In this document: positions 19,250 to 64,000 of the stretch, in pieces
Layout: each line of letters starts with the position of its first letter
How positions within the stretch are numbered: the first letter of the stretch is position 1
From: Kiritimatiellia bacterium
GTDB lineage: Bacteria; Verrucomicrobiota; Kiritimatiellia; RFP12; UBA1067
DNA length: 64,000 nt
Reading direction: 5' to 3'
NCBI GenBank assembly: GCA_017403825.1
Contig: JAFRDO010000077.1
Coordinates: 64,921 to 128,920, forward strand
Position numbers and translations under genes: made by a program
Notes under the pieces: model-generated
Told to the model about the DNA's origin: nothing
The model's database searches: none
The model's input: the letters and a program-made list of their open reading frames with translations, nothing else

Positions 19250-19277
19250 TTCTGTTTCTCCTTTAAGAGGTGATTGC

Positions 19278-19351: not shown

Positions 19352-19391
19352 GAAAATATATACAAGGAAGCTTTGCCATTGGTTCCTTAAG

Positions 19392-20348: not shown

Positions 20349-20374
20349 GCTAATGTCTCCGTAATCTGATCGAT

Positions 20375-26063: not shown

Positions 26064-26092
26064 CTTGCGCCTCAGTGTCTTTTCTTGACTAT

Positions 26093-30300: not shown

Positions 30301-30697
30301 CCTTGGGGACGGTGAAGGATGCCATTTCATGGAAGATCGAATTCTTGTCGAACATGAAGCCGGCTGGCTCCCACGCGCCCTTTTCGGTGGAGTTTGTCCA
30401 AGCCGAATTGACATAGGAATAGCGCACCATGTCATAAGTCGCGCCGCCACTGCCAAGGTTCTTCCATGTCGTGGTGTTCGGGTCGTGGGCGGCGTTCGGC
30501 CCCGCGTTGCGGATGCCATCGTAATTGAGTACAAGCCCGTCCTGCACGTAGTCGCCAACGTCAAAGGACTTGTACGCGGGGTTGTCCCAATACTTTATGC
30601 CCGCGTCAGCGGAGGTTGCGATCAGCGCCGCCAAACACGCTGGAAACAGCCGGTTGGCTATTTTTGATGTTTCGTGCATCTTCATTGTCGTTCTCAT
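27399..30697 (-). pseudogene. Family-B giant secreted protein paralog, split by a frameshift near 28318..28322. The track shows it as two overlapping ORFs, 27399..28292 and 28028..30697.
   Basis: In the upstream ORF, module 3 breaks off at '...YDLTRYSTNGTVG'. It resumes in the other frame as 'GFEFGDGGGVESWNQDASRGAW...'. The last 90 aa of the long ORF are Arg/Ser-rich out-of-frame junk. The C-terminal 100 aa are about 80% identical to the 21795 gene and end LPEPLGMMIIVQ. Confidence 0.6.
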
Positions 30698-41807: not shown

Positions 41808-41809
41808 AA

Positions 41810-44885: not shown

Positions 44886-44920
44886 GAAGCGTATTATAGC
44901 ACAAATCCAGCCTTACGGTG

Positions 44921-46531
<1,611 letters not shown>

Positions 46532-46558: not shown

Positions 46559-47614
46559 CTACTTCCAGTTTATGTAGCCGCTGACGGGGGTCAGATAGGC
46601 CGCTCGGTCGGTGGCGGGCTTATACCGCGTGCCGTCATACCAGTCGGTAAAACCGTTCTCGGCTCGGTAATATTCCCCGGTCTCGGTGTCCTGGACGCGC
46701 TCGTATCCAAGGGTGGCGTCGCTGCGTTTCTGCGACAGGACGTCATATGTGGCGTTGCGCCGCCGATAGGAGTCCATGATCATGCCTCTTATCGAATCAG
46801 CCGTCTGCATTATGTAGGCGGACGTGCCCATCAGCTGCGCCCAGGCCGCCCTGCGCTGCCGATGGAACGCCTGGGTGAAGGCTATCGAGGAAAGGCAGCG
46901 GTCAAGGACCGGCTGCCATTCGACGAACTCTTCCTTCAATGCAGTCTCGGAGATGATGGAGAACTCCGTCATGACCCCCACGTCCAGCTGCCCGGCCCCA
47001 GGCTTGAACACGTTACGGCTCACCATCTGCGTCATACCCTTGACGACCGCATGGTACAGCCCCTGCATCTGCCTGCCCGAGGATGCCGACGTGCATTGCG
47101 CGACAACCACCTCTCCGCCAAGCGGCGTCTTGCCCAGCCGTTCCAGAACCTCGAACTGCCTATAGCCCATTATCGGCCCCATCGCGGCGAAAAAGCCAGC
47201 CGTCGTCGGCTCCCTCACGACCGGCATCTTCGCAAAAAGGCTGTTGGGTCCGTAGTTCTTTATGTGCCAGTTGCGAGCCTCCTGCGACTTGAGCCCAATG
47301 GCGTTGTTCAGGCAAAAGTAAAGCTCTCTCTCCGGACGCGCCGGATCATACACCGTGATGGCATAGCTTATGAGATCAACCTTTCCCGTCGCCTTGAGAC
47401 CGGTGCGCACACGCCATCCGTTAGGAATGTTGACGGTGAAGAATCCGCTGGGGTCGCTGTACTTGACGAATTTGACATTCCTAGCCGCCGAAGGGCGAAT
47501 GCGAATCGCCCCCTTCTTAGGCGGAAAGCCATACCCCGTCAGGCATGACGCAAGCACAACGGCCACTGCAAGGGAAACAACCTTGATTTTCATATTGCGA
47601 ATATTATATCTCAT
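46559..47614 (-). CDS. Hypothetical lipoprotein.
   Basis: The lipobox VLASC occurs in MKIKVVSLAVAVVLASCLTG. The probable start is at 47593. Confidence 0.45.
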   Translation of the reverse strand: MRYNIRNMKIKVVSLAVAVVLASCLTGYGFPPKKGAIRIRPSAARNVKFVKYSDPSGFFTVNIPNGWRVRTGLKATGKVDLISYAITVYDPARPERELYFCLNNAIGLKSQEARNWHIKNYGPNSLFAKMPVVREPTTAGFFAAMGPIMGYRQFEVLERLGKTPLGGEVVVAQCTSASSGRQMQGLYHAVVKGMTQMVSRNVFKPGAGQLDVGVMTEFSIISETALKEEFVEWQPVLDRCLSSIAFTQAFHRQRRAAWAQLMGTSAYIMQTADSIRGMIMDSYRRRNATYDVLSQKRSDATLGYERVQDTETGEYYRAENGFTDWYDGTRYKPATDRAAYLTPVSGYINWK

Positions 47615-49616
47615 CGAACCCGACTACGGCAACGCCGCACTCCTTTGCTGTCTCAAGAATACGCTCCAGCCATTCCGTCTTCATGTTGATGCTTTTGGCG
47701 TCGGGACGAATCCCGTGAGATGTGAGCACAAACACCTCCTTGCGCTCGGCACAGCGACGTATGCAGGCGAGCAAGTCCTCGATATCGGTATGGTACGCCT
47801 CGCCCGCGATGACCGTGTCGAGACGGAAGCGCGAACTCAGCTCCGACGCTGGAAAGAACACCCGGTCGACCGTATGAATGGGCTTCAGGCCTTCCTGCTT
47901 CTCGCCTTTCGGGTCGAACGGCGCCACGCCCTTGTGTCCGCCGCGAACATGCGCGAATCCCCTGGACTTGAAAAGCGCGTCCGATTCTTCCGAGAACCGG
48001 CAGTTCGGGTAGGCGTACGACGTAATCGGTATCCAGGCGACGCGCATGCGATCGAACTGCGGCGCAATCTCCTCGTCGAAAAACCTCGCTGCGCCCTTTG
48101 CGGCGATTGCCTCGTTCGCATTGGCATGGCGAAGCCCATGAAGCCCGATGGAATGTCCGTGCGCCCTGAGGTTCTTCAACGCCTTCACGGTCGTACTGTC
48201 AATCTCCCCGCACACGAAAAACGTGACGTGCGCACCGTACTTGTCGAAGATCGGCAGGGCCTTAGTCCAGTCATCCAGGTTGCGGTCGTCGAAAGAAAGC
48301 AACAGCGTTCCCGTCGGCTTGTCGGACGGACGGCAGTTCTCGAAGCGCACTCCCTCGGACGGTCCCTTGAAGGTGGCGAACTTGCGGCTGCGCGGATTCC
48401 CCCACTTGCGGTTGTTGCGCACCCTGAAGCCATCGAGATGCCGCCGCGTGCAGTTCCTGAACGTCACGTTCTCGGCATGGCACTTCTCGGCGCCGTCGAT
48501 GCGGCATGGCGCAATCGACTCCATGCGGCAGTTCTCGAACACGATGTCGCGCGCCCGCGCGTCCGCATTCGGGCAGTCGAATCTCACCGGGTAGGCGCTT
48601 TCCAGAATGTCGCAACCGGTCACGTGCACGTTCTCGATGTAGACGTTCTTCCCCTCGGCCACCCACGCCGGAGTGAAGCCTATGCCGTTGGCGCTCTCGT
48701 GGAATCGGCAGTTCTCCACCGTGACGTTCCGGATCGTGCCGGTGCCGACGCCGAAGCGGATTCCCCAGCAGCAGGTCCACACGTCGCAGTCGGCGATACG
48801 GATGTTCTCGCACGGATGCTCCGCAGCGTGGAGCTTGCATGAGGCGCGAATGGCGAACCCGTCGTCGCCGGTCCTGATCGTGCATCCGCTCACGGTCACG
48901 TTGCGCGTGCAGTCGATGGATAGGCCGTCGGAGTTGGCGATAGTGCGGTCGGCGTCGACGGTAACGTTCCGTATGTCAAGCCCGTCGCAGCAGCGGAAAT
49001 GTGTGGTCCAGCACGGCGTATGCCTGAGCGTCACGCCCTCGATGCGGATGTTCTTCGAGAGGAACATGGCGACCATCGGACCGGGACGGAACCAGTCGCG
49101 GTCGACCGGGTGCAGCTTAAGGCCGTACTTGTAGTACGGGAAGTGGCTGTCTTCGTCGCACTCCTCGTTGAAGAACTTGGGGCCGCTGCCGTCGATCACG
49201 CCCTCGCCGGTGATGGCGACGTTCTCCGCCTTGTAGGCAAGGACAAGGTGTCCGCCGCTCCATTCCTCGCCGTTGCTCCAGAAGTTCTCCGGGAAACAGT
49301 CATTGGCGTTGTAATCGCCCCGTTCAGTCGAACCTTTCAGCGTGGCACCCTTCTCAAGATGCAGTTCAACGCCGCTCTTGAGCCACACGGTGCCGGAGAG
49401 GTAGGTGCCGGCAGGCAGCACTACACGCCCGCCACCCGCCGCCAACGCGGCATCGACCGCACGCTGGATCGCCGCCGTATCCTTGGTCGCGCCGTCGCCC
49501 TTCGCGCCGAAATCGCGCACATTCCACGTCCCGGCGTCCGCAATCGCACATCCAGCCGCAAGCACGGCGGCTGCGGTCATTCCTAAACGGTTCGCAATCA
49601 CTCCTGGATTTCCCAT
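47604..49616 (-). CDS. Bifunctional-looking secreted enzyme. An N-terminal GH28-like pectin-lyase-fold glycosidase is fused to a C-terminal polysaccharide deacetylase (CE4/NodB-like) domain.
   Basis: The GH28 motifs 'WNVRDFGAKGDG', 'NSDGLSID', 'GDDGFAI' and 'RIAD' are present. The C-terminal 'LLLSFDDRNLDDW...TFFVCG...HGHSIGLHGLRH' is NodB-like. Confidence 0.7.
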   Translation of the reverse strand: MGNPGVIANRLGMTAAAVLAAGCAIADAGTWNVRDFGAKGDGATKDTAAIQRAVDAALAAGGGRVVLPAGTYLSGTVWLKSGVELHLEKGATLKGSTERGDYNANDCFPENFWSNGEEWSGGHLVLAYKAENVAITGEGVIDGSGPKFFNEECDEDSHFPYYKYGLKLHPVDRDWFRPGPMVAMFLSKNIRIEGVTLRHTPCWTTHFRCCDGLDIRNVTVDADRTIANSDGLSIDCTRNVTVSGCTIRTGDDGFAIRASCKLHAAEHPCENIRIADCDVWTCCWGIRFGVGTGTIRNVTVENCRFHESANGIGFTPAWVAEGKNVYIENVHVTGCDILESAYPVRFDCPNADARARDIVFENCRMESIAPCRIDGAEKCHAENVTFRNCTRRHLDGFRVRNNRKWGNPRSRKFATFKGPSEGVRFENCRPSDKPTGTLLLSFDDRNLDDWTKALPIFDKYGAHVTFFVCGEIDSTTVKALKNLRAHGHSIGLHGLRHANANEAIAAKGAARFFDEEIAPQFDRMRVAWIPITSYAYPNCRFSEESDALFKSRGFAHVRGGHKGVAPFDPKGEKQEGLKPIHTVDRVFFPASELSSRFRLDTVIAGEAYHTDIEDLLACIRRCAERKEVFVLTSHGIRPDAKSINMKTEWLERILETAKECGVAVVGFDEI

Positions 49617-49632
49617 GACATGTTGCGCAAGC

Positions 49633-50955
49633 CTACAGCCTGCGGAACGTGGCGCAGCGGATGGCCTTGCCGTTCGACAGGCGAACCGTCGTCACGTCGC
49701 CGTCCGTTGACACGTCGCCATCCGCAAGGGTCTCGCCCCAGCGGATGTCGATGAGCGCGTCGCGCACCATGAAGTCGAAGTACGGCATGTCCTCCGGCGG
49801 CTTCTTGTCCGGCGTGACGACGACAGGCTCGCGTCCCTCCTTGCGGCGAGCGGGAATGCACGCCTCGACGCACTTGCCGACGGGACCGTACAGCACGAGG
49901 TCTTCGTCGTGGCGGTCGTCGTACCACGCGGCCTTCGCCTCGGCGAGGCAATCTGCCGCCTCCCGGTGCTTGTCGATGTCTTTCTGGCGGTACGAGCGCA
50001 TCCACGACGCCATAAGGAAGCCCTTTATCAGTTTGCGCTTCAGGTGCTTCTTGGAGAAGCGCACCATCGTCGCCATGTTCCATTTACGCGCCCATGTGCT
50101 GCCGCACGGAATCATTTCATACCCGCCGTCGCTAAGCTCCTTGAACGCCAGCGCGCCCGCCACGCCCTCCGGCCAGTCGCGGCGGCGGATCTCGTCGTTG
50201 TCGCGGACGAAATGCCAGAAGCGCTCGTAGTGCCACGGGCACTGCATCACTCTCTTCGGCATCCTGCGGTAGAATTCCTCGCAGTCAAGCCATATCTTGT
50301 CGCTCCAGATCCACGGCCTCGACCCGTTTTTCTCGGCCTCGCCTGCCGTGAAGAGCATGTCGTGCCACCACAGCTCGCCCTGACGCGACACCGCGTAACG
50401 CGACTTCCTCTGCGCCCCCATGCGCTCCTCGTCCCACCCGAGGTGAAACAAGCGCGGCGTGCCGAAGATTTCGCACACGTCACGTATCACGTCAGCGCAC
50501 ACCTTGTAGTATTCAGGCGTTGCCACCATGCGGCTGTAGTCCTTGAGCCAGGCGTCGTGGCAGGCGGAGAAGTTGAGTTTCGGAATCGGCTCAAGCCCCA
50601 TCCCCTTGAGGCGCACAATCTCCTCCTTCATCCGCTCCGGAGACCAGCTGCCATCCACTGCAAGCTCCGGATGGCTCGGATAGGCAAGGCCCTCGCCAAG
50701 GTCGATGAGAATCAGGTTCGCGCCCTTCTTGGCGTAGCATTCCGTAATCTCGTTCCACACCTTCACGTCCGTACGGTTGAACGGCTGCGCATAATCGTCA
50801 CGCTTCTCCGGCTTCGGTTCTCCGATAAGCGGCGCCTCGCCCCACATGTTGTGGCCGAGCTGAACCATGAAACCCCAGATCATTCCGTCCGCCGCGAGCG
50901 GTTTTCCCGTTGCATCATTTGCTGTCATCTTCCTGTTTCTTTCATTGAAGGTCAT
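49633..50955 (-). CDS. Putative glycoside-hydrolase-like TIM-barrel protein with an H-x-G-x-D-E motif. It is a paralog of the gene at 59255..60316.
   Basis: The start was refined to MTFNERN at 50955, giving an ATGA overlap with the upstream gene. It shares 'LGHNMW', 'IDLGE..AYPSHPEL', 'NFSA.HD.WLK.Y' and 'HLG(W/Y)DEE' with the Tat-signal paralog. Confidence 0.45.
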   Translation of the reverse strand: MTFNERNRKMTANDATGKPLAADGMIWGFMVQLGHNMWGEAPLIGEPKPEKRDDYAQPFNRTDVKVWNEITECYAKKGANLILIDLGEGLAYPSHPELAVDGSWSPERMKEEIVRLKGMGLEPIPKLNFSACHDAWLKDYSRMVATPEYYKVCADVIRDVCEIFGTPRLFHLGWDEERMGAQRKSRYAVSRQGELWWHDMLFTAGEAEKNGSRPWIWSDKIWLDCEEFYRRMPKRVMQCPWHYERFWHFVRDNDEIRRRDWPEGVAGALAFKELSDGGYEMIPCGSTWARKWNMATMVRFSKKHLKRKLIKGFLMASWMRSYRQKDIDKHREAADCLAEAKAAWYDDRHDEDLVLYGPVGKCVEACIPARRKEGREPVVVTPDKKPPEDMPYFDFMVRDALIDIRWGETLADGDVSTDGDVTTVRLSNGKAIRCATFRRL

Positions 50956-51866
50956 CGTGGCATTGGGTTCTTGAACACGCAGTGGCGCGTGATGTCCGTC
51001 ACCTTGTCGCCCTTGATGTCGGCGAAGAGGACGAGCGCGTGGACGGAAAGCCCCGGCTTCTCGCGCGACTTCATCCAGTTCGGCGTGGAGCAATAGACGA
51101 AGCGCGTCGCGCCGTCCTTGCCGCCGGGAACGACGTCGACGCCCTGGAACCAGCCGAACGACCACTTGCCAAGGACATTGAAGTCCTTATCAAACTTGAA
51201 GAAGTTGTACCCGCCCTCGTCCGGCACGTCCGACGCAACGTAGATGAAGGTTCCGTCCGTCGTAATGTTCTGTTGACCCGTCGAATAAAGCGGCGAATGG
51301 TGGTCCACGACGAACGTGTCGCCTATGTCCTCAAGCGTCGTCGCGGCAAACTTGCGGTAACGCGCGCAATGGCGCGGCTTATCCTCCTCGCCAGGCAACG
51401 CAACCGTACTCAGCCCTATGTACAGCACCCCGTCAAGGCAGGTGATGCCGTCGCCGCCCGCGCCTTTAGGCCGTGTGAACACACGCTCTTTCACAAGATT
51501 CAGGTCTTCGTCGAACATCTGAATGCTGCCTTCAGGGCCGCTCAAGTGGCAGACGATCGTGTAGAGATGCCCGTTCCAGTAGCAGATGTCACCCTGATGC
51601 TTCACGAGGTTTTCGGCCCGCTTCATGAGCCGCCCGTACCAGTCGGTCTTTACGATCTGGTTGTGGAATGCGAAATAAAGCGCATTTGAAGTGGCGCACA
51701 TGCCCTGAACGTGCCCGCACCACGTATTGCCGGTCCATTCCCTCACGGCGCCTTTTTCGGTGATGCGCACCTCCCAGTTGCCCGGCACCTGCCAGTTGCC
51801 GACATCGGCGGCCACCGCACACGCCGCCAGCAAAAAGACGGCAACCGCAATATTCATGTTCTTCAC
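50952..51866 (-). CDS. Secreted beta-propeller-like hypothetical protein, tandem paralog 1.
   Basis: The signal peptide is MKNMNIAVAVFLLAACAVAA. It shares 'W.GH.QGMC..SNA.YF.FHNQIVKTDW.GRL', 'DGIT.LDGV.Y' and 'G.DVVPGGKDGA.RF' with the gene at 51863..52831. Confidence 0.45.
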   Translation of the reverse strand: MKNMNIAVAVFLLAACAVAADVGNWQVPGNWEVRITEKGAVREWTGNTWCGHVQGMCATSNALYFAFHNQIVKTDWYGRLMKRAENLVKHQGDICYWNGHLYTIVCHLSGPEGSIQMFDEDLNLVKERVFTRPKGAGGDGITCLDGVLYIGLSTVALPGEEDKPRHCARYRKFAATTLEDIGDTFVVDHHSPLYSTGQQNITTDGTFIYVASDVPDEGGYNFFKFDKDFNVLGKWSFGWFQGVDVVPGGKDGATRFVYCSTPNWMKSREKPGLSVHALVLFADIKGDKVTDITRHCVFKNPMPR

Positions 51867-52831
51867 CTTTCAATGAACTTCACGAATCCGGCGCCTGTGC
51901 CATGCTCCGTGAAATCGAAGACCTGCCCGTCCTTGACTTCGACAAACTGGACGATTCCATAGACGTTGATGCGCGGGTCTTTCTTGTCCGGCGTGGTCCA
52001 GTTGGGCGTGAACACCCAGGCGAAGCGCACCGCGCCGTCCTTGCCGCCGGGCACCACGTCAATGCCGTGGTTCCACCCGAACCTGTACTTGGCGACAACC
52101 TTGAAGGTGTCCTTGTCATGCACGACCACGTTGGGCGTGCGCTCCCGCTCGTCGTAGGTGTAGTGGCTGGAATAGATGTACTTGCCGTCCGTGCACATGT
52201 TCTGCGAACCGCAGACGGACTTCTCGCCGTCGTCGATGGCAAAAGGCTCGCCGATCTGCTCCAGCGTCTCGGCGTCGAACTTGCAGTACTTGTTGAGGCA
52301 TCCGCATTTCTTCTCGAAGTCGTACGTGCCGCTGCAGCCCAGGGCGAGGTATATCACGCCGTCAAGTGCGGTTATGCCGTCGCAGCCACCCTCGTTCGGG
52401 AGCCGCATCTCTTTGACCTTCTCCAGCGTCTCGGCGTCATACACGTATATGCATGGCGTCCAAGTCTCGCCCTTCTCCTTCGGCTTGCGCGCAACGCCCG
52501 TGTAGAGCTTGCCGTTCCAGATGCAGATGTCGCCGCCGTGCCGGTCAACCTCAGTCCACTTCAGGAGCCGCCCCTGCCAGTCGGTCTTCACGATCTGGTT
52601 ATGGAACGAGAAGTAGATTGCGTTCGAGCTTACGCACATGCCCTGGCAGTGTCCGCTCCATGTCTTGCCGATCCACTTCTGGACGGCTCCAGGCTCCGTT
52701 ATGATGATGTTCCAGTTGGGAACCTTCCAGTTCTCCTTTTCGAGGTCGATCGCGCCGCATTGCGCCGACGCCGCAACTGCCGCCGCGAGCATTCCCGCAC
52801 GCACCCTTCCGCCAACAATCGTCTTTTTCAT
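51863..52831 (-). CDS. Secreted beta-propeller-like hypothetical protein, tandem paralog 2.
   Basis: It overlaps paralog 1 by 4 nt (ATGA). A signal peptide is present. Confidence 0.45.
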   Translation of the reverse strand: MKKTIVGGRVRAGMLAAAVAASAQCGAIDLEKENWKVPNWNIIITEPGAVQKWIGKTWSGHCQGMCVSSNAIYFSFHNQIVKTDWQGRLLKWTEVDRHGGDICIWNGKLYTGVARKPKEKGETWTPCIYVYDAETLEKVKEMRLPNEGGCDGITALDGVIYLALGCSGTYDFEKKCGCLNKYCKFDAETLEQIGEPFAIDDGEKSVCGSQNMCTDGKYIYSSHYTYDERERTPNVVVHDKDTFKVVAKYRFGWNHGIDVVPGGKDGAVRFAWVFTPNWTTPDKKDPRINVYGIVQFVEVKDGQVFDFTEHGTGAGFVKFIER

Positions 52832-52866
52832 GTTTGACTGTTCCTTTTCGATGTCAATCCGTCATG

Positions 52867-55095: not shown

Positions 55096-55191
55096 CGCAA
55101 ACCTCCACCTTGTAAGTTGATTTTGTGCACATTCTACCAAAGCCATCCTCCGAATGCAAGCCCGAACCGCTACAGCCCGAAGCGCCGCGCG

Positions 55192-58089
55192 TCACACGTG
55201 CTTGGCCAGGAATCTGCCCAAAAACGCATAAGCGACGTATCCGCCGAAGAAGGTTATGCCGAGCGAACGGCTGCCCGCCGCACCGGCGCCGGACGCAAAA
55301 ACGAGCGGAAGCATCGTCAGCGCCGCCAAGAGCGGAAGGAGCGACCGCTTCCAGAAGCCAGCCGAGGAATCCGCGACAAGCGACATCGCCGTTGTGGCAG
55401 CGACGAGCATCACAATCGCATAGCGCGAATAGACGGAAAACGCGACGCCCGAGACCGTAAGCGCCAGGATGGCGCCGAACACCGCCACAACCGATGGCAG
55501 CAGCGACCAAAAAGCCTTGCGCCAACTCTCCCGGTAGGCCACAAGCACAAGATACACGAGAAGCAGCGCAAGCGCGAAAAGCAGACCTTCGTCGCCACGG
55601 CTCTTGAGCGACTCGTAGGTGAAGCCCGCCCAGTCGTTGATGAAGCCCGGGGAGAGCTTCTCGCGGCATATCCTGCGCACCTCCTCCACCGCTTCGGACA
55701 TCGAGACGCCGGGCTTCGGGATGAACTGCTCTGTGCAGTAGAGGTACTGGTCGCAGCGGTAGCACGCGCGCGGCCCCAGTTCCTCCCGGCAAGTGACCAG
55801 CGTGTCGATCGGCACCATGGCCCCGGTCTTGGACCTGACGTAGAGCTTTCTTATGTCATCAGGCCGCGCACGGCCGCTCCAGCCGGACATGGCCGTCACG
55901 CGGTTCACCTGAGTGCCCAGATTGACATCGTTCACGTAAATCGACCCGAGGTTGTGCTGCAGCACCGTGTAGATGCTCGACATCGGCACCTTCATCAGCT
56001 CGCACTTGGCCCGGTCGACCTCAATGCGCAGCTTCGGCGTGTCAGTGTAGAAGCCGCCATTTACGGATTCGGCCAACGGAGACTTCGCAAGCTCGCCGCG
56101 CATCCGCAGCACTTCGCGCGAAAACTTCACCGGATCGCTGTCGCCGATCGCCTGAAACAGGACCGACACGCCGCCCTGAGTTCCCATGCCCTTTACGGGG
56201 GGCATCCGCAGGGTGTGTATCTCCGCGTCCGGCACTTCGTCAGCAATCTTCTGCACGCGCCTTGCGATCTCATACGACGATTCGCCCCTGCCGCGCTTGT
56301 TCCAGTCCTTGAGCGTCAGGAACATCTTCGCCTGATTCTCGCCCGAACCGTTGATGATGCTCGTCCCGAAGAGCGTAACGCTCTTCTCCACTCCGTCAAT
56401 GGCGCTCGTCTCCCGGCAGATGCGACGCATCACCTCGCCGGTGACGTCCATCGGCATTCCCTCCGCCGTCTTGCAATCGACGATGAGCACCCCCATGTCT
56501 TCGTCCGGCACGAACTCGCTCGGCAACTTCAACGACAGGACATACGAAACGAGTCCGGCGAGCGCCGCAAGTATCAGCGCAAGAATGAGCCCGTCCTTCG
56601 GCGCGGCGGCATCCGGACGCGAACCGCAGCCGTCCGCCGCAGCCAAGCGTTTCGCGGCGACGGGCACCAGAAAGACCGAATTGAAAGCTGACGCGACGGC
56701 CATTGCCGCGAACACCACCGAGAACTGCCGGAAGAGCACGCCCTGTACGCCATCCACCAACGCGAGCGGCAACGCGGCAGCCGCCATGACTGCCGCGGCG
56801 GCGATCTGCTCCATTCCCGGGAGTCGGCCCTTGCGTACCTTTGAAATCGACCAGCCGGCCAAGCCGGTCACAAACGCAAGCGACGCGAGAAACGCATAGA
56901 GCGCAAGGAGATTCACCTGACAACCGGACGCCGACAGCACCACCGCCGTAAGCGACGCGGGTACGACCATGGACACCGTCGCCAGAAGCGACGCCCGGAA
57001 CGACCGCAATGCCGCCCACAGCGCGAGAAACATGATCAGGACCGCCAGCGCCACCGCCCAAGCGCCGCCCTCCAGCGCCCGATACATGTACTCCGTCGTA
57101 TCGTAGGTCATGTCCCACGTGAGGTCCGCCGGGAAAAACGGCTCGAGGCTGCGAAGCTCTTTCTTCACCTCCGCCATGGTCTCAAGGGGATTCGCCCCGG
57201 GCAGCAGATACAGCATGATATAGACCGCCGGATCCTCGCCGAACATGGCGGTGTACGAATAGCCGTGCGGCCCCATGCCGATGGTGGCCACATCCTTCAG
57301 GCGCACCAGTCCGCCGTTTGCGTCCGTAGTGACGATGATCTCGCCGAATTCCTCCGGCGACGAAAGCCGTCCCTTGGAGATGAGCGTGATGACGCGCGCC
57401 GTGGCGTCTTCCGACGGATAGGCGCCTACGGCCCCCAGGGACGCCTGGACGTTCTGCGCCCGGATTGCCGCGACGACATCTTCGGTATTGAGTCCGAGCG
57501 CCGCGAGGCGTTCGGGGATCATCCACACGCGGACGGCCAGACGGTCGTACCTGACCACCGACTTGCCGACGCCGGCCACGCGCAATATCGCCGGGTTAAC
57601 CACGCCGTGCACATAATCCGCCACCTGATCGCATGTAAGACGTCCGCCGGGCGAGCGGAGCGTCAGCACGCCAAGTTCCTCGGTGGTTCCGCTCTCGACG
57701 GTGACTCCCGTGTTCTTTACCTCCTGCGGAAGCAGTGAGAGCGCCTGCTGAACCTTGCTCTGCACCTTCATCAGGGCGATGTCCTTGTCGTATCCGACGG
57801 CGAAGTTGACGGTCAGGGAATATGCGCCAGAGTCATAGCAGCTGCTCGTCATGCGGTCCATGCCCTCGACGCCGTTCACCTTCTCTTCAAGGGGACCTGC
57901 GACCGTATTCATGAGTTCAACCGCGTTCGCGCCGGGATACGTACATGACACGGAAATCGCCGGACGCGCCAGCGCCGGGTACAGCGTGACCGGCAGGAGG
58001 CACAGCGAGAGGGCGCCGGCGATCAAGATGACCAGCGCGACAACTGCCGCGAGGCGAGGACGGGCGACGAAGAATTCCGTCGCCTTCAC
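55192..58089 (-). CDS. RND efflux transporter permease (AcrB/CzcA superfamily).
   Basis: The 965-aa protein has 12 TM segments with two large periplasmic loops. It overlaps the adaptor gene by 4 nt. Confidence 0.85.
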   Translation of the reverse strand: MKATEFFVARPRLAAVVALVILIAGALSLCLLPVTLYPALARPAISVSCTYPGANAVELMNTVAGPLEEKVNGVEGMDRMTSSCYDSGAYSLTVNFAVGYDKDIALMKVQSKVQQALSLLPQEVKNTGVTVESGTTEELGVLTLRSPGGRLTCDQVADYVHGVVNPAILRVAGVGKSVVRYDRLAVRVWMIPERLAALGLNTEDVVAAIRAQNVQASLGAVGAYPSEDATARVITLISKGRLSSPEEFGEIIVTTDANGGLVRLKDVATIGMGPHGYSYTAMFGEDPAVYIMLYLLPGANPLETMAEVKKELRSLEPFFPADLTWDMTYDTTEYMYRALEGGAWAVALAVLIMFLALWAALRSFRASLLATVSMVVPASLTAVVLSASGCQVNLLALYAFLASLAFVTGLAGWSISKVRKGRLPGMEQIAAAAVMAAAALPLALVDGVQGVLFRQFSVVFAAMAVASAFNSVFLVPVAAKRLAAADGCGSRPDAAAPKDGLILALILAALAGLVSYVLSLKLPSEFVPDEDMGVLIVDCKTAEGMPMDVTGEVMRRICRETSAIDGVEKSVTLFGTSIINGSGENQAKMFLTLKDWNKRGRGESSYEIARRVQKIADEVPDAEIHTLRMPPVKGMGTQGGVSVLFQAIGDSDPVKFSREVLRMRGELAKSPLAESVNGGFYTDTPKLRIEVDRAKCELMKVPMSSIYTVLQHNLGSIYVNDVNLGTQVNRVTAMSGWSGRARPDDIRKLYVRSKTGAMVPIDTLVTCREELGPRACYRCDQYLYCTEQFIPKPGVSMSEAVEEVRRICREKLSPGFINDWAGFTYESLKSRGDEGLLFALALLLVYLVLVAYRESWRKAFWSLLPSVVAVFGAILALTVSGVAFSVYSRYAIVMLVAATTAMSLVADSSAGFWKRSLLPLLAALTMLPLVFASGAGAAGSRSLGITFFGGYVAYAFLGRFLAKHV

Positions 58090-59258
58090 TGCGCGACCAC
58101 CCTCACGCTGTCGCCGTCCTTGAGCTTGAACGCGCCGAGGGCCACGATCCTGTCGCCTTCAGAAAGCCCTTTCGACACCCTGGAAAGTCCGTTCCATTCG
58201 CCGTCGGTCTCGACTATGACCGGGTGCACCTTGCCGTCGTCGCCGACCTTCCACGCCTGAAGCCCCTCGTCGGCGCGCACAAGGGCGGCCGTAGGCACGA
58301 CGACTGCCGCAGGCGGGTTCTTCTCGTCCGAAAGGACGCGCACGAACGCATTCGCAACAAGGCGTCCCGCAGGGTTTGCGAAGCAGACGTGCATGGTGAG
58401 CGTAGCGGTCTCGCGGCTCATCTCGTTGTCGCCGAAGTCAATCACGCCCTCGTGACCGTAGAGCGAGCCGTCGGGCAGCACGAGCCTGAGCCGGCGCGAA
58501 TCCTTGAGTTCGCGTCCGCCGCGCTCCGCCGCCGCCTGCCACGCGTCGTAGTCGCGGTCGCTGATCGGGAACACGACGCGTATGGGGTCGGTCTGCACGA
58601 CGCGGGCAAGGGCGCTCTTCGACGGGGACACGTAATCGCCCACGTGGTGGAGAGCCCTGCCGATGCGTCCGGATATCGGCGAATAGACCTTGGTGTGCCT
58701 GAGGTTGAAGTCGGCTATGGCAGCAGACGCCTTCGCCTGCTCAACTGCGGCGTTCGCGGCGTTCAGCGACGCCTTCGCGGAGGCAAGCGCCGTCTCGGCG
58801 GCATCACGCTCGGTTGCTGTTATGCCGCGCTCGTCGGCGGAAGAAAGCCGCCTGTAGTAGCGCTCGGCGCGCTCCAGGTCGGCTTGCGCCACCGTCACCT
58901 TCGCCTCTGCGCTCGCGACTTCGGAATAGCGCAGGTTCTTCGCGGCAAGATACTGCTCGGAGTCGATCTCGAAAAGCAGGTCGCCCTTGCCGACCTTCGC
59001 TCCCTCGGTGAAGCATACGCGCTGGATGTAGCCGTCGATCTGCGGCAGGATGTCCGTGACCTGCGCGGACTCCACGTGCCCTACGTACTGGACGGGCGGG
59101 TTGAACAGCGCGTTCGTCGCCACCGCAACGCTTACCGCAGGCGGTTCCTGCGGACGCTCCTCTCGCGGCTCTTCCCTGAACCCTACGGCTTCTCGCCCGA
59201 ACCAGCCGAGCAAGACAAGCGCCACGGCGGCGACAGCCGTCGCAAACTTCCTCCTCAT
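58086..59258 (-). CDS. RND efflux periplasmic adaptor (membrane fusion protein).
   Basis: An N-terminal TM anchor is followed by coiled-coil Ala/Glu-rich hairpin and beta-barrel regions typical of HlyD/AcrA-family proteins. Confidence 0.8.
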   Translation of the reverse strand: MRRKFATAVAAVALVLLGWFGREAVGFREEPREERPQEPPAVSVAVATNALFNPPVQYVGHVESAQVTDILPQIDGYIQRVCFTEGAKVGKGDLLFEIDSEQYLAAKNLRYSEVASAEAKVTVAQADLERAERYYRRLSSADERGITATERDAAETALASAKASLNAANAAVEQAKASAAIADFNLRHTKVYSPISGRIGRALHHVGDYVSPSKSALARVVQTDPIRVVFPISDRDYDAWQAAAERGGRELKDSRRLRLVLPDGSLYGHEGVIDFGDNEMSRETATLTMHVCFANPAGRLVANAFVRVLSDEKNPPAAVVVPTAALVRADEGLQAWKVGDDGKVHPVIVETDGEWNGLSRVSKGLSEGDRIVALGAFKLKDGDSVRVVAQ

Positions 59259-60316
59259 GCGTCCGCCTTGATGACCGCACCGACCCGGTCTATCGCCTCA
59301 AGGTTCTTCTTCTCCCAGCCGGGCAGCGTGAAGAACCACGGCGCCATCAGGAAGCCCTTCAGGCGTTCCGGCGAGCAGACCTTGCGGCAGAACTTGACGG
59401 TGCCGGCGAAGTTGGTGTCGTAGCTCCAGTTCGATCCGGTCGGAATCTGGTCGAAACCGGCCTTGTCGAGCTCCTCGTAGGCCTTGACGTAGGTGATGTA
59501 CTTCTCCTTGCCCTTCGCCTTGAGCGCGTCATAGTCGAAGTCGGAGCTGTAGTACCAGTTGCTCTGCAGCACGCTCTTGGGCATCCGCTTGAAGAACAGG
59601 TCGGGATGGTGCCACACGTAGTCGCTCCAGATCCACGGGCGCATGCCGTTCTTCTCCGTCTCCTTCACGAACCACAGGAAGTCGTTCCACCAGAGGTCGC
59701 CCTGGCGCACGGTGCAATAGAGGTACTTGCGCTGATGCCCGACGGTCTCCTCGTCGTAGCCGAGATGCAGGAAGCGCGGACGGTCGAATATCTCGCAAAC
59801 GTCACGGATGAGGTCTGAGCAGACCTGATAGTACTGCTTCGTGGAGAGCATGCGCTCGTACTTCTTGAGCCACACGTCGTGCGCAGCGGAGAAGTTCATC
59901 TTCGGAATCGGCTCCAGCCCCATCGCCCTAAGGCGCGCCAGCTCCTTGCGGAAGCGCTCGATCTCCCAGCTGCCGTTCACCCACAGTTCCGGATGGCTCG
60001 GGTACTGTATCGCCTCGCCGAGGTCGATGACCACCATGTTCATGCCGACCTGCACCATGCGGTCCGTGAGCGTACGCCACACCTTCTCGTCGAAGCGCAC
60101 GTGGTCGGCCTGGCACACGAGCTTCAGGTCATCGCCCTTGTACGGCCCCCAGGACGTGACGGGCTGGTCGCTCCACATGTTGGTGCCCATGTGGAAGAGC
60201 CCGGCCCATATGAAGCCGTCCTGCTTCTGCGGGGCAGCGGCCAGGCCGCGCCCGGCCAACATTCCTCCCGCGGCCATAGCCGCAGAGCTTACGAAATTAC
60301 GTCTTGTCATTTCCAT
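59255..60316 (-). CDS. Tat-signal putative glycoside-hydrolase-like TIM-barrel protein, a paralog of the gene at 49633..50955.
   Basis: The Tat motif MEMTRRNFVSSAAMAAGG is present. Blocks are shared with the paralog as noted above. Confidence 0.5.
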   Translation of the reverse strand: MEMTRRNFVSSAAMAAGGMLAGRGLAAAPQKQDGFIWAGLFHMGTNMWSDQPVTSWGPYKGDDLKLVCQADHVRFDEKVWRTLTDRMVQVGMNMVVIDLGEAIQYPSHPELWVNGSWEIERFRKELARLRAMGLEPIPKMNFSAAHDVWLKKYERMLSTKQYYQVCSDLIRDVCEIFDRPRFLHLGYDEETVGHQRKYLYCTVRQGDLWWNDFLWFVKETEKNGMRPWIWSDYVWHHPDLFFKRMPKSVLQSNWYYSSDFDYDALKAKGKEKYITYVKAYEELDKAGFDQIPTGSNWSYDTNFAGTVKFCRKVCSPERLKGFLMAPWFFTLPGWEKKNLEAIDRVGAVIKADA

Positions 60317-60343
60317 GTCTTGTTCTCCTTTCAGGTTGTCATC

Positions 60344-61762
60344 TCACGCGCAATACGGCTGGGTCCAGGCGGTGTGATGCGCCGGGTGAAGGCAGCGCTG
60401 GCGCTTGAACTTAGTCGGTGCGTCGCTCTCCACGCGGGCGCGGACGTAGAGGTCATCCGCCGCCAGCATGTAGGAGGCCTCGACGCGCTCGCCCTTCTTG
60501 CCCTCGACCAGCTTGACGGTCGCGCCGATGCGATCGTCGTAGATCGGCACCTTGCGGGCGCGGTCCATGTGTTCCGCCGTGGCCGGGATGTTTACGTAGC
60601 GCACGGGATCGAGCGGCGCCCCCTTCTTCGTGGAGATGAAGCGTATCTTGTATGCGACGCCGGGCGTCGCCGGGACCGAGACGGTCAGCGTGCCGGTCTT
60701 GCGGTCGAACGACACGTCCTCGAGGTCCTGCTGGGACGATGCGTAGAAGTCGCCGCGCTGGATCGCCTTGAAGAGCGACTCCTGAGTCAGCTCCTCGGCA
60801 AGCACCATGACGTAGCTGTCGCCGAACGCCGAGTATTCCAGGCCGGTTCCGGGATAGAAGTGCGTGTCGTCGGAGCCGATGCCATAGAGCATCTGCTGGC
60901 CGTGAGTCATTCGGTAGGCGAGCACCGCGTCCCACAGGTTGTCGTGGTACCACTCGCCGTCGAGCTCCTCCGGCACGGGCCACTCGGAACCGTTGTTGCA
61001 CACCTCGAAATAGCGTATTTCGGGATTGTCGATGAGATCCTTCGCATACACGTCGTAGTAGAGCCAGTTCGGATGGTTCACCATGCAGAAGAACGGCGGG
61101 TTGCCGCGCTCCTTGGCAAGCGCCTCGCTAAGCTCGCGCGATTCGCGGATGGCGGAGGCGACCGTGCGGCCCGGCAGGAACTCGATGAGCTTCGCCCGCT
61201 TTGCGCGCTCTATCACGTCGTCGATGCCGACGACGTTCATGTGCATGGCATAGGTGACTCCATTCTCCTTCACGTCCGTCGTCAGTTCGACGCCGGGTAT
61301 CATGAGGAACTTCTCCTTCTCTTCGAACATCTTCTTGACTTCGGCGAAAGTCTTGAGGCGGACATGGGTGAGAGCGCCGTCCTTGCCCCCGCGCACGGAA
61401 GCGGTCTTCCCGAATCGCTCCATGTATTTCTTGAAGCAGTCAGGATGCACGCAGATGGGCGGCCATCCCTTCTCCGTGCCGTTGCCGACGGCGATCCACC
61501 GATCGGGATCAACGCCGAGCCGGTTGTGGTCGGTGAAGGCGATGAAGTCGTAGCCGGCGTCCTTGTACGCGGCAGCGCACTGCTCCGGCAGGGCGCGTCC
61601 GTCCGACCAAAGCGTATGCATGTGCATCATGCCGCGATACCAGCGCTTGCCGGTCCCTGGCTTCGGAATGCCTGCATAGGCCGCCATCGTTCCGGCGGCA
61701 AAGGCCGCCCCCATGAACCCCTTTCGGGTCATCGTCTGTTGCATTGTGTTTGCTCCTTGCAT
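60344..61762 (-). CDS. Secreted PHP-domain (polymerase/histidinol-phosphatase-like) metal-dependent phosphoesterase.
   Basis: The 'MMHMHTLWSDG' motif is PHP His-x-His. An N-terminal Tat/Sec-like signal MTRKGFMGAAFAAGTMAAYA is present. Confidence 0.6.
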   Translation of the reverse strand: MQGANTMQQTMTRKGFMGAAFAAGTMAAYAGIPKPGTGKRWYRGMMHMHTLWSDGRALPEQCAAAYKDAGYDFIAFTDHNRLGVDPDRWIAVGNGTEKGWPPICVHPDCFKKYMERFGKTASVRGGKDGALTHVRLKTFAEVKKMFEEKEKFLMIPGVELTTDVKENGVTYAMHMNVVGIDDVIERAKRAKLIEFLPGRTVASAIRESRELSEALAKERGNPPFFCMVNHPNWLYYDVYAKDLIDNPEIRYFEVCNNGSEWPVPEELDGEWYHDNLWDAVLAYRMTHGQQMLYGIGSDDTHFYPGTGLEYSAFGDSYVMVLAEELTQESLFKAIQRGDFYASSQQDLEDVSFDRKTGTLTVSVPATPGVAYKIRFISTKKGAPLDPVRYVNIPATAEHMDRARKVPIYDDRIGATVKLVEGKKGERVEASYMLAADDLYVRARVESDAPTKFKRQRCLHPAHHTAWTQPYCA

Positions 61763-61790
61763 GTTGTAGTCGATTTCAACCGGATTCCCT

Positions 61791-63254
61791 TCACGAACTC
61801 CAACTCCACTTCACCGGCGGAAGCGGGTCGCCGCATATGCCGAAGCTGTTCGCGGGACGGACGGTGAACGTGACCGCCTTGTCCTTCGGAAGCTCGAACT
61901 TGCCAAAGACGCAGCACGACGGCTCCTTCTCCTCCGTCTCCGTCCAGTACGCACGCGTGGAGAACACGCGGCGGACAAGCTTGAAGTCCTTCGCGCTCGC
62001 GACCACCTCGTAGTCGAGAGCGCGCGGCCGCCCGTCGCCGGAGTGCGCCGGCGGGAACGTCACGACCACCTGCTCCAGCTGCTGCTTCGCGCGATTCTTC
62101 CCTACGCGTTCGGACACGGTGGCCGTCGCGCCCTCGGGAAACGCCGGCGCGACTGACACCGACCTGCGCACCAGCTCGGAGCACGAGCCGTCAGGCGACG
62201 GCAGCGGAATCACCCAGTTCGGCCCCATCGCGGCGTCATGGCGGACGTCCCGCCGCTCAAGGACGATGCTGTCGTCGCAGACGGTCACGAAAAGCGCCTG
62301 GTTGGAAGTCATGCAATCCACGCGATTCATCAGCTGCGGACGCTTCTTGTCCGCCTGGTTGCCGCACGAGAACGAGTTCTCGCGTCCGCCGCGCGTGCAG
62401 CAATAGCTCGTCGAGGGCACGTGGACGACGGTGTATTCGCCCTGCCAGAGGCTAAGTTCGTCCGCGCAGTTCCTGTGGCAGTGGCCGAAGAACGCCATCA
62501 CGTTCGGATACTTCGCGAGCGCCTTGTGGTTCGGGTCGTTCTCAAGGCTCTTGGGATCCCATTCGGGAAGCGTGCCGTGCACCGGACGGTGCATCGAGTA
62601 GAAGAACGGCTTCGTCGGGTCTGGATTTGCGGCGGCAAGAGCCTCGGCAAGCCCCGGTATCACCGTGCCGCTCCCCATGTTGTGCGGATGATGCGCCAGG
62701 ACGAAGGTGTAGCCCTTCACGTTCTTGACCTGAATCGGCTCCCATTTCTCGTGGAAGAGCCTGTCCCATATCGCTACGACATCCTCGTTCACGAGCGCAT
62801 GGTTCGGCGCATCGGGATCTTTCGAGCATTTCACGGCCCACGGATACTTGTGGGCGTAGCCGCCGTAGTCGTGGTCGCCGAAGTGGAAAAGCCTTGCGAT
62901 CGGCTCGCCGTCGCTGCGCCTGTCGCCCGGAAACACCCTGTACCAGATCTCCGCCGCGTATTCAAGCTCGGAGACAAGTCCGCAGTCCGCTATGTCTCCG
63001 CAGAGCAGGACGGCGTCAGCCTTCCGTTCGTCATACCAGCGAAGCGCCTTCTCGAACCAGACGTCGCTTTTCATGCTGTCCTTCTGCACGAGAAGGTGAA
63101 CGTCGGAAAGGACGCCGACCTTTAGCTTCGGCTCGCCGCCTCCGCCCTTCCTCGGAAGGCACCCTGCCGCCGCCAGCACCGTAGCCGCCGTGGCCTGCCC
63201 GAAAAACGTCCTGCGCGTAAGCGCCTGTCGCGTTGTCATGTTCATGATGTCCAA
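61791..63254 (-). CDS. Tat-signal metallophosphoesterase, copy 3.
   Basis: The Tat motif LTRRTFFGQATAATVLAAAG is present. Metallophosphoesterase motifs 'LSDVHL', 'GDIAD' and 'GHCHRN' are present. Confidence 0.7.
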   Translation of the reverse strand: MDIMNMTTRQALTRRTFFGQATAATVLAAAGCLPRKGGGGEPKLKVGVLSDVHLLVQKDSMKSDVWFEKALRWYDERKADAVLLCGDIADCGLVSELEYAAEIWYRVFPGDRRSDGEPIARLFHFGDHDYGGYAHKYPWAVKCSKDPDAPNHALVNEDVVAIWDRLFHEKWEPIQVKNVKGYTFVLAHHPHNMGSGTVIPGLAEALAAANPDPTKPFFYSMHRPVHGTLPEWDPKSLENDPNHKALAKYPNVMAFFGHCHRNCADELSLWQGEYTVVHVPSTSYCCTRGGRENSFSCGNQADKKRPQLMNRVDCMTSNQALFVTVCDDSIVLERRDVRHDAAMGPNWVIPLPSPDGSCSELVRRSVSVAPAFPEGATATVSERVGKNRAKQQLEQVVVTFPPAHSGDGRPRALDYEVVASAKDFKLVRRVFSTRAYWTETEEKEPSCCVFGKFELPKDKAVTFTVRPANSFGICGDPLPPVKWSWSS

Positions 63255-63265
63255 TGTCTTTACTC

Positions 63266-64000
63266 CTATTGATTCTTGCTGACGATCTTCAGCTCTCCAG
63301 GAGACAGCCGCACCTGTTCGCGCGCGGCGCCTGAAGAACGCTCGAGAACAGCCTCCTGCGCGAGGTGCGGCTCGGTGTTGAGCAGGTAGACGGTGCCGTC
63401 CGGATAGACGCTCCAGCGGACTGTGTCAGGGCATTCCACCTTGGGCCAAACCTCCGTGCCGACGGCCTCCATCGCCTTCGCCATCAGGTAGGAATAGAGC
63501 TTGCGCACTCCGAACGTCCCGGGCGAATCCAGCGAAGCGAGGAAAATGACGCGTCCCTTGCCAATCTCGTTCACGAAGCCGATGCCCCTGCATTCGGCGA
63601 TCTTCTTCTCGTGAAAGCGGTCGGACGCCACGATGAACGGCGTCGCTGAGGTCGCTTCCAGCGCAGGGATGTCGAAGCCGCCCTCGATGAAGTCAGGGTC
63701 CCACATATCGGTGAGCGGCTGGAAGTTCCAGCCGGGGCCTGGGTTCTTCATGAACTTCATTCCGTGCGGCAGGTGCCACGGCTTCCCGTCAACAGTCTTC
63801 ACGCCGAGAAGCTCCGACCAGTCGCCTCCGTTGTACGGCACGAACCCGCCGTCGGGAGCGTCCTGCACAGTCATGTGGCTTGCGGCAAGCATCAGCGTGC
63901 CGCCGCCCTTCACGTAACTGACGAGCTTCGCGTAAAGCGCATCGTCCATTACGTTGCGCCCAAGGAAAAAGAGGAAGCGATACTTCGCAAACTCGGCTTC
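63266..64000 (-). CDS. C-terminal part of a larger protein whose N-terminus lies beyond the window end. It may contain a glutamine-amidotransferase-like/beta-galactosidase trimerisation-type domain.
   Basis: The reading frame stays open upstream of the track ORF start (63949) all the way to position 64000 (…EAEFAKYRFLFFLGRNVMDDALYAKLVSYVKGGGTLML…). Confidence 0.45.
   Translation of the reverse strand, partial: EAEFAKYRFLFFLGRNVMDDALYAKLVSYVKGGGTLMLAASHMTVQDAPDGGFVPYNGGDWSELLGVKTVDGKPWHLPHGMKFMKNPGPGWNFQPLTDMWDPDFIEGGFDIPALEATSATPFIVASDRFHEKKIAECRGIGFVNEIGKGRVIFLASLDSPGTFGVRKLYSYLMAKAMEAVGTEVWPKVECPDTVRWSVYPDGTVYLLNTEPHLAQEAVLERSSGAAREQVRLSPGELKIVSKNQ

Follow-up and report, generated by a model that had tools for sequence, protein, structure and literature searches.

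Organization of the array

The window analysed here comprises 64,000 nucleotides (nt) from a Kiritimatiellia bacterium (assembly GCA_017403825.1, contig JAFRDO010000077.1, positions 64,921 to 128,920). Towards its end lies an array of genes for phosphoesterase-type proteins, glycoside hydrolase (GH)-like proteins and an RND efflux pair (Table 1), which an original prediction had taken for one long operon and a candidate locus for phosphodiester-containing glycans. The order proposed there is correct and runs, entirely on the minus strand, from a partial gene through a metallophosphoesterase (MPE; Metallophos) gene, a PHP-like gene, a GH-like gene, the genes for the periplasmic adaptor (MFP) and the RND permease, a 759-aa protein, two beta-propellers, a paralogue of the GH-like protein and a fusion of GH28 with a CE4 deacetylase to a lipoprotein gene. 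From the comparisons described below, the region is regarded, with moderate confidence, as a mosaic peculiar to its lineage, made up of small modules that move separately, on a gene-rich strand, and not as a conserved operon for a single substrate. For the GH28-CE4 and MPE proteins there are entries of 100% identity named 'Kiritimatiellae bacterium' (NCBI, ENA) on ruminant-gut assembly contigs; among species representatives, isolate RGIG5820 (sheep ileum) is the closest.

Table 1. Genes of the array in transcription order, with the two genes that continue it downstream. Positions refer to the window; Tat, twin-arginine translocation; AF2, AlphaFold2.
Feature	Positions	Strand	Length (aa)	Basis or remark
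X646, C-terminal 245 codons (partial in window) of an exported protein	63266..64000	-	646	Frame open to window end
MPE487, Tat lipoprotein metallophosphoesterase; N-terminal dimetal domain, C-terminal FN3-like beta domains	61791..63254	-	487	PF00149, AF2
PHP472, PHP-fold metallohydrolase, CehA/McbA-like, Tat-like signal (TRKGFM)	60344..61762	-	472	Sub-cut-off PF02811, NF038032
GHL353, predicted Tat-exported distant GH20-like (beta/alpha)8 glycosidase	59255..60316	-	353	Profile, AF2 model, Foldseek
RND periplasmic adaptor (MFP)	58086..59258	-	390	TIGR01730, PF16576
RND inner-membrane permease, HAE1 multidrug type	55192..58089	-	965	PF00873
Variable Sec-signal protein with internal repeats	52867..55146	-	759	Read directly
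BP322, exported 6-bladed beta-propeller	51863..52831	-	322	7ona, E 3.6e-8
BP304, lipoprotein beta-propeller	50952..51866	-	304	47% identity to BP322; 4-nt overlaps on both sides
GHL440, GH20-like paralogue without signal peptide, ~110-aa C-terminal extension	49633..50955	-	440	45% identity to GHL353
GH28 (beta-helix) + CE4 deacetylase fusion, lipoprotein	47604..49616	-	670	PF00295, PF01522
351-aa lipoprotein	46559..47614	-	351	Lipobox; 11-nt overlap with the stop of GH28-CE4
ABC-F ATPase and endonuclease IV (nfo), housekeeping	43986..46531	-		Pfam; gaps of 27 and 35 nt

In transcription order, the junctions between the longest open reading frames (ORFs) measure 11, 28, 27, -4, -4, 45, 35, -4, -4, 16 and -11 nt, four of them being 4-nt ATGA or GTGA overlaps and one an 11-nt overlap. 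Public gene calls place the starts of the GH28-CE4 and PHP genes later than the longest ORFs do, and some gaps then become 46, 96 and 52 nt. The overlaps that had been reported are thus present, while the accompanying statement that all other gaps are 30 nt or less holds only approximately. The first ORF of the array is open to the end of the window, and the array therefore runs past it. At the other end it is continued at the same spacing by the genes for ABC-F and nfo, which indicates that spacing does not mark out a functional unit; the limits of the array as drawn are arbitrary, not natural. Scans for promoter-like and terminator-like consensus sequences returned no more sites than shuffled sequences did, and no intergenic terminator was found in the array.

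Co-directionality does not set the array apart either. In a simple ORF map the minus strand carries nearly all credible genes from 3.3 kb to 64 kb, housekeeping genes included, and GC skew stays below zero in nearly all 2-kb blocks of the window; together these features may reflect a replication-associated strand bias. Genes for exported enzymes are interspersed on this strand with the housekeeping genes holA, lgt, pth, ychF, gpsA, ABC-F and nfo.

Export signals can be read at the N-termini of all members of the array except the 440-aa GH-like paralogue. They comprise Tat motifs in MPE487 (TRRTFF), GHL353 (TRRNFV) and PHP472 (TRKGFM, an RK variant), and lipoboxes or Sec signals elsewhere. No Pfam family of SusC-like TonB-dependent transporters or SusD-like proteins was matched by any ORF of the window, which thus lacks the hallmark of a polysaccharide utilization locus (PUL) of the Bacteroidota type.

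Predicted enzymes and surface proteins

Neither GHL353 nor GHL440 matches a Pfam model at E<=0.01, the GH20 model PF00728 included. A profile of their family nevertheless finds GH20 chains in the PDB (9fyl and 9fym, E 0.0017; 8bal, E 0.012), and the AF2 model of GHL353 (mean predicted local distance difference test score, pLDDT, 85.6) returned GH20 structures as all 50 of the 50 best listed Foldseek matches in the PDB, with E down to 1.7e-10, TM-scores of 0.55–0.62 and 10–15% identity. Residues D188-E189 are invariant in 25 sequences of the family, and its HLGYDE motif aligns with HVGLDE of 9fyl and 9fym, which contains the catalytic D-E pair of GH20. On the grounds of the fold matches and the aligned invariant pair, the two proteins are called distant GH20-like glycosidases, having a hexosaminidase fold and a predicted activity; the barrel and the D-E pair of GH20 are both recognized, but the sequence model is not matched. 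The relationship proposed for the two GH-like genes is thus upheld, with the qualification that the paralogue GHL440 lacks a signal peptide and is probably cytoplasmic.

The GH20-like family is large (4,484 matches at E<1e-5 among 90% clusters, and 1,392 clusters at 50% identity), is spread over the PVC phyla, Bacteroidota and Hydrogenedentes, and has no Pfam or NCBIfam model; it is a candidate new GH20-related family. Elsewhere the domain is fused to AXE1 esterases (two cases), a beta-helix protein, an FAD oxidoreductase or DUF4350, and one fused relative matches PF00728 at E 7e-4, under the cut-off. Neighbourhoods of the family were compared in 78 other genome loci (L010–L087; loci from other assemblies are numbered with the prefix L) from Kiritimatiellae, Lentisphaerae, Verrucomicrobia, Planctomycetes, Bacteroidota and Hydrogenedentes. 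There, 115 immediate neighbours yielded 109 Pfam families, among which GH109, GH123 and GH20 recur, and an SSF symporter lies nearby in four loci and a nagA-like amidohydrolase in three. The window itself encodes an AraC-type regulator with a periplasmic-binding-protein (PBP)-like sensor domain, at 26231-27394 on the plus strand and among its very few plus-strand genes. Homologues of this regulator occur near GH20-like genes in 9 of the 78 unrelated loci, and it may govern a regulon of the GH20-like family. The associations with GH109, GH123 and GH20, with AraC/PBP regulators, SSF and nagA-like genes fit a role related to N-acetylhexosamine (HexNAc).

Among the phosphoesterase-type genes, full-length X646 and the gene upstream of it could be read in locus L008. 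There, X646 is preceded, with a 1-nt overlap, by the gene for a 527-aa lipoprotein with two EEP domains, which for the array lies beyond the window end. X646 itself gave only a weak match to PF22369 (GLMA_2nd, E 4e-4). The EEP protein matches PF03372 (E 5e-29); its C-terminal EEP domain aligns with the mannosyl-6-phosphatase BT3783 (PDB code: 4c1r) at E 3.4e-32 over ~235 residues, and its N-terminal EEP domain has weak NCBIfam matches to xth and MnuA-nuclease. By sequence, the C-terminal domain is closest to the BT3783 sugar phosphatase family, not to nucleases, and is a predicted phosphatase.

MPE487 matches PF00149 with 30.8 bits against a cut-off of 21.5, and its metal ligands (D51, H53, D87, H128, H222, H258 and H260) do not vary across 39 homologues. 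Its AF2 model (pLDDT 90.9) most closely resembles Rv0805, purple acid phosphatases, Lmo2642 and Mre11, and its N-terminus combines the Tat motif with an AAAGC lipobox. The protein, whose family is small (105 clusters at 90%), is thus placed by profile and model in the metallophosphoesterase superfamily and is predicted to be a phosphodiesterase or phosphatase. PHP472 contains an HxH motif and was found under both curated cut-offs that apply to it, namely PF02811 (24.3 against 26.4) and NF038032 CehA_McbA_metalo (76.7 against 80). Its best family consists of carbamate and other hydrolases, which are not proven phosphoesterases, and the name 'PHP phosphoesterase' that had been given to it is accordingly not established. 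Sequence searches of the PDB with X646, MPE487 and PHP472 returned no useful match, and for PHP472 only the PHP motif of PolX (E 0.003).

The protein that follows the RND permease had been described as giant but actually measures 742–759 aa. It matches no Pfam or NCBIfam model, and its gene is missing between the RND and propeller genes in two closely related loci (L007 and L009); it seems to encode a variable surface protein and to have been inserted recently, in this genome only. A partial gene at window positions 1-1363 encodes a protein 24% identical to it. Large exported paralogues containing LamG_3, which are encoded on the minus strand at 21795-25076, 27399-28292 and 28028-30697 and share 37–48% identity with one another, belong to a different family. 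BP322 resembles designed Kelch-type propellers (7ona), the lectin BP39L and YncE, with a weak DUF5074 match, and in locus L003 an 87% identical homologue adjoins a LamG_3 gene and a heparinase-II/III-like gene. A role of the beta-propellers as phytases was considered and rejected, there being no match to PF02333.

The GH28-CE4 protein exceeds the gathering scores of both its domains (PF00295, E 2e-22, 80.1 against 22.9; PF01522, E 1.3e-12, 48.2 against 23.1) and carries the motifs NSD, GDD, FDD and HGLRH. The GH28 part is nearest to models of PglB and of Bacteroides rhamnogalacturonidases or galacturonidases (BT4146/BT4153/BT4155-like), all below their cut-offs. The fusion is widespread, with 1,238 matches and both domains present in all but one of the best 120 listed. 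No Pfam or NCBIfam match was obtained for the 351-aa lipoprotein, which in L007 is separated from GH28-CE4 by an inserted gene for a 679-aa protein.

Conservation in related genomes and other genes of the window

Only L007 and L009, whose proteins are 89–98% identical, preserve the full gene order. Both loci lack the 759-aa gene, so that the RND gene leads directly to a propeller gene, and the arrangement of the propellers differs. Homologues of GH28-CE4 are found in other surroundings: at 83% identity (L003) between ispH and a Metallophos gene, in an ispH/PFK neighbourhood; at 80% (L005) after a pair of ECF sigma and anti-sigma-like genes with FGE-sulfatase genes; and at 72% (L006) after another GH28 gene. 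Among the 78 GH20-like loci, EEP matches occur only in L015 and L076, an MFP/RND match occurs only in L027 and on the opposite strand, and homologues of MPE487, PHP, the beta-propellers or the glycerophosphodiester phosphodiesterase (GDPD) of the window occur in none. Gene flux is evident from the absence of the 759-aa gene in L007 and L009, the 679-aa insertion in L007 and an exchange of the paralogue upstream of the MFP gene in L088. The order is thus broken at 72–83% identity for GH28-CE4, at 69–75% for RND and throughout the 78 GH20-like loci, and the comparative evidence does not support one long operon. The array as observed is largely real, but no more than the background organization of this genome; the gene comparisons reveal small modules pieced together, with rapid gene flux.

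The two proteins of the efflux pair are readily recognized. The MFP gene, whose ATG start overlaps the stop of GHL353 (ATGA), encodes a protein that scores 203.8 bits against TIGR01730 (cut-off 94.9) and matches PF16576, and the RND permease matches PF00873 at E 2.8e-166 and scores 654 bits with NF000282, under the cut-off of 1250. No OEP/TolC-type Pfam match, as expected of an outer-membrane factor, was found in any ORF of the window or among the ten neighbouring genes scanned in related loci. In 15 related metagenome loci an MFP match precedes the RND match, with RND identities of 69–87% (51–52% in L098 and L099). The genes that flank these pairs are diverse and include GH109 and SSF upstream with purB and dnaG downstream (L091), pheA and DAHP synthase (L092), GH78 (L093) and a RecD-like helicase (L102); at 69–75% identity the orthologues have no GH20-like neighbour and adjoin biosynthetic or replication genes. 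These changing neighbours argue that the efflux pair is autonomous. Its presence inside a catabolic operon had been remarked upon as unusual, but judged from the orthologous pairs its position would be a positional accident of this lineage, not a functional anomaly. A family of 582–693 aa without Pfam match adjoins MFP-RND in L088 (1-8618) and L090 (1-7680) and lies ~5 kb away in L007; it is missing from the window.

Several further genes that had been noted elsewhere in the window could be confirmed. The secreted GDPD, encoded at 18329-19405, does adjoin gpsA, and the two additional Tat-MPEs (19392-20438 and 25107-26138, minus strand) are paralogues with 34% identity, of a type unrelated to MPE487 by BLAST. 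The gene for the first of them shares an overlap with the GDPD gene, itself followed by gpsA, and a homologue of this type adjoins GH2 in locus L114. The gene described as nagA encodes a nagA-like amidohydrolase and stands beside that for a GH39-containing protein of 1153 aa, the two-module GH of the original prediction. A ceramidase-like hydrolase, by comparison, found no Pfam support in any ORF of the window at E<=0.001. Another pair of paralogues (39756-42065 and 41810-43855, minus strand; 34% identity, about 680–770 aa) has weak GH76/GH127-like (alpha/alpha)6 matches; next come genes for an MBL-fold protein, an AllG-like protein and an SSF symporter, and a separate sugar-utilization module may be formed here. 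A gene for an AAA_14/DUF4143 ATPase (20375-21655, minus strand) may be foreign DNA: its GC content at third codon positions, 0.58, is markedly below that of its neighbours, and it lies in the block from 20 to 22 kb, where the GC content of the window is lowest (0.549). Rfam and tRNA scans of the window gave no matches.

Interpretation and comparison with known systems

The mosaic that we favour would consist of eight modules. The first is the two-EEP lipoprotein, with its BT3783-like second domain, followed by the exported 646-aa protein; the second and third would be the Tat-exported dimetal phosphodiesterase-type MPE and the CehA/McbA-like metallohydrolase of PHP fold. The Tat-exported GH20-like glycosidase, translationally coupled to the MFP-RND pair, may form a fourth, the 759-aa surface protein inserted in this genome only a fifth, and the two beta-propeller proteins with the cytoplasmic GH20-like paralogue a sixth. 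The GH28-CE4 and 351-aa lipoproteins would be the seventh, and the housekeeping genes ABC-F and nfo the eighth. It is conceivable that the exported enzymes, working in the periplasm or at the cell surface, trim acetylated glycans that include HexNAc and uronic acids, for which cell-wall material of microbes or plants and host material are candidate sources. The phosphoesterases could then strip phosphate caps or bridges that block exo-glycosidases, by analogy with BT3783 in the mannan PUL, and the cytoplasmic GH20-like paralogue could finish imported fragments. The RND pair would be a general efflux pump of HAE1 type, outside the pathway.

A number of observations weigh against the mosaic and lend themselves to other explanations. 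The four 4-nt overlaps, the gaps of at most 45 nt and the absence of terminator-like intergenic sites are compatible with long co-transcription, and part or all of the array may be one transcript. The contexts of MPE487 homologues outside close relatives are also to be considered, although just four such distant loci were sampled (L111–L114). In L113 the homologue (38% identity) overlaps a gene for a 1,030-aa GH28 protein by 4 nt, and in L114 (43% identity) it overlaps a GH20-like gene by 4 nt, within a 17-kb stretch that holds five GH20-like genes in all, an EEP gene, Y_phosphatase3, GH2 and a second MPE of the Tat-MPE type. This is the strongest single hint of cooperation between phosphoesterases and GH20-like enzymes. 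The stretch (L114:1-17449; ENA ERZ27247114 k141_982126) is on one strand throughout and also contains an MR_MLE enolase-superfamily gene. Moreover, one protein among the best 120 GH28-CE4 homologues listed, P0120 (913 aa), is a triple fusion of GH28, CE4 and Metallophos. Derivation of its MPE domain from the MPEs of the window was considered and rejected, as it matches none of them at E<0.01. These features would suit a single operon for phosphodiester-linked, N-acetylated polymers such as teichoic-acid-like glycans or phosphoglycolipids, in which cleavage of phosphodiesters would fall to the MPE, PHP and EEP proteins and processing of the sugars to the GH20-like, CE4 and GH28 enzymes. The array does hold three or four phosphoesterase-type genes in a row with HexNAc-type and deacetylase enzymes, the EEP protein is homologous to a glycan phosphatase, MPE487 is most like class III phosphodiesterases, and in L112 the MPE gene (44% identity) is separated by one intervening gene from those for GDPD and a canonical GH20. 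Such an operon is nonetheless quite unlikely, since the order is not kept beyond near-identical genomes, none of the ten GH20-like fusion proteins examined has a phosphoesterase domain, GHL440 is not exported and PHP472 is CehA/McbA-like. The only GDPD of the window is encoded among housekeeping genes at a distance of ~27 kb, the cluster itself yielded no PhoD- or GlpQ-type gene, and nothing points specifically to polymers of glycerol- or ribitol-phosphate. The proposed link between phosphoesterases and enzymes for N-acetylated glycans draws support from the GH20-like fold, the BT3783-like EEP domain, the contexts in L112 to L114 and the triple fusion, while the 78 GH20-like loci and the frequency of Metallophos genes speak against it; taken together, the sequences give some support to an occasional partnership of exported phosphoesterases with GH20/GH28-type enzymes. 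The efflux pair could be tied to the GH20-like enzyme, for example by expelling a toxic pathway product, or a lipid or aglycone set free from lipo-oligosaccharides or glycolipids. ATGA/GTGA overlaps join the GH20-like, MFP and RND genes of the window, the 582–693-aa family recurs beside the pair, and L088 (RND 87% identical), the only related RND locus with a GH20-like gene upstream, has there an orthologue (88%) of GHL440, where the window uses the other paralogue, GHL353. The occurrence of different paralogues upstream of MFP-RND in two arrangements hints at a functional tie and weighs against the mosaic, yet the pump belongs to the common HAE1 multidrug type, its orthologues at 69–75% identity do without a GH20-like neighbour, and only one of the 78 GH20-like loci has MFP/RND nearby. 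We consider this tie very unlikely.

Less improbable, if still doubtful, is that the phosphoesterases scavenge phosphate or nucleotides from extracellular nucleic acids, phospholipid head groups or phytate-like esters, their adjacency to glycosidases reflecting the dense packing of genes for exported enzymes. Nucleases and phosphatases occur within each of the EEP, MPE and PHP folds, as illustrated by the weak xth/MnuA matches and by the resemblance of MPE487 to Mre11, Rv0805 and purple acid phosphatases. In L111 the MPE homologue (73% identity) adjoins nusG and other housekeeping genes, and Metallophos genes are common in these genomes (three within 22 kb in L003, three in the window). Against this stand the closeness of the C-terminal EEP domain to BT3783 rather than to nucleases, the 4-nt overlaps with GH28 or GH20-like genes in distant loci and the covalent GH28-CE4-MPE fusion. 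A bolder proposal, which we think unlikely, is that the Tat-exported GH20-like family, MPE487-type phosphodiesterases and BT3783-like phosphatases depolymerise phosphate-bridged or phosphate-capped HexNAc- or uronate-glycans of microbial, fungal, protozoal or host origin, with the RND pump removing a product in this lineage. If true, the pathway would parallel, in PVC form, the phosphatase-assisted mannan PULs, with another phosphoglycan as its target.

If the mosaic is accepted, genes in these genomes cannot be assigned to an operon on the strength of close spacing and shared direction; here the enzyme genes are interspersed with housekeeping genes and an autonomous efflux pair. This matters for Kiritimatiellae, which are common yet uncultured in ruminant and other gut communities and whose glycan genes do not lie in SusC/D PULs, so that gene neighbourhood is the main clue to function. 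The most useful outcomes of the analysis are the re-identification of the GH-like genes as GH20-like, the BT3783-like tandem EEP protein beyond the window and the recurrent adjacency of MPE to GH28 or GH20-like genes. Tractable targets are accordingly the large GH20-like family without a model, the small family of Tat-exported phosphodiesterases that recurs beside GH28/GH20-type genes and the tandem BT3783-like phosphatase; should these enzymes cooperate, they would define how gut bacteria outside the Bacteroidota handle phosphorylated glycans. A literature search on gut loci for teichoic-acid degradation yielded nothing relevant, and one on Kiritimatiellae in the rumen yielded community surveys only.

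Teichoic-acid catabolism in Firmicutes employs secreted GlpQ (a GDPD) and PhoD-type enzymes. GlpQ and wall teichoic acid are the subject of PMC9656465. The window resembles that system in encoding an exported GDPD and several exported MPEs and differs in the distant position of the GDPD gene beside gpsA, with no PhoD and no comparative link to the cluster found. The efflux genes correspond to HAE1 RND systems of the AcrAB/MexAB type in that the MFP and permease are encoded as an overlapping pair; they differ in having no outer-membrane factor gene nearby and in a short permease that falls below the NCBIfam subfamily cut-offs. MPE487 shares its fold and all metal-binding motifs with the class III phosphodiesterase/purple acid phosphatase branch (Rv0805, Lmo2642 and purple acid phosphatases). 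Identity to that branch is only ~14%, however, motif III reads GDHD instead of GNHD/E (Asn to Asp), and the protein is a Tat lipoprotein with an extra C-terminal FN3-like module, from a family without a characterised member.

For the GH20-like proteins the nearest comparators are the beta-N-acetylhexosaminidases and lacto-N-biosidases of CAZy family GH20, represented by S. pneumoniae GH20C (5A6K), Niako3494 (8BAL) and the T. denticola enzyme (9FYL/9FYM; PMC11776370). The (beta/alpha)8 barrel of GH20 is the best structural match, the D-E pair is shared, and the small single-domain form is that of 8BAL and 9FYL. GHL353 differs in its Tat signal, its low identity and TM-scores, the missing PF00728 match and a family that makes up about 1,400 separate 50%-identity clusters. 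The closest parallel for the array as a whole is provided by the yeast alpha-mannan PULs of B. thetaiotaomicron, with the EEP-family sugar phosphatases BT3783 and BT2630 (PMC4978465; PDB code: 4C1R). The assays described by Cuskin et al. (2015, PMC4978465) include that of BT3783 as a phosphatase on phosphorylated sugars and its incubation with a phosphorylated high-mannose N-glycan. An equivalent of the yeast-mannan PUL was rejected, as GH92, GH38, GH125 and GH99 are all missing here and the weak GH76/GH127-like matches lie outside the cluster; in addition, there is no SusC/SusD pair, the EEP domains are in tandem, the gene order is unconserved and the RND pair and housekeeping genes are interleaved. 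What the two have in common is the co-location of exported glycan enzymes with an EEP-family phosphatase, and the array can be described as a glycan-degradation gene neighbourhood with accessory phosphatases.

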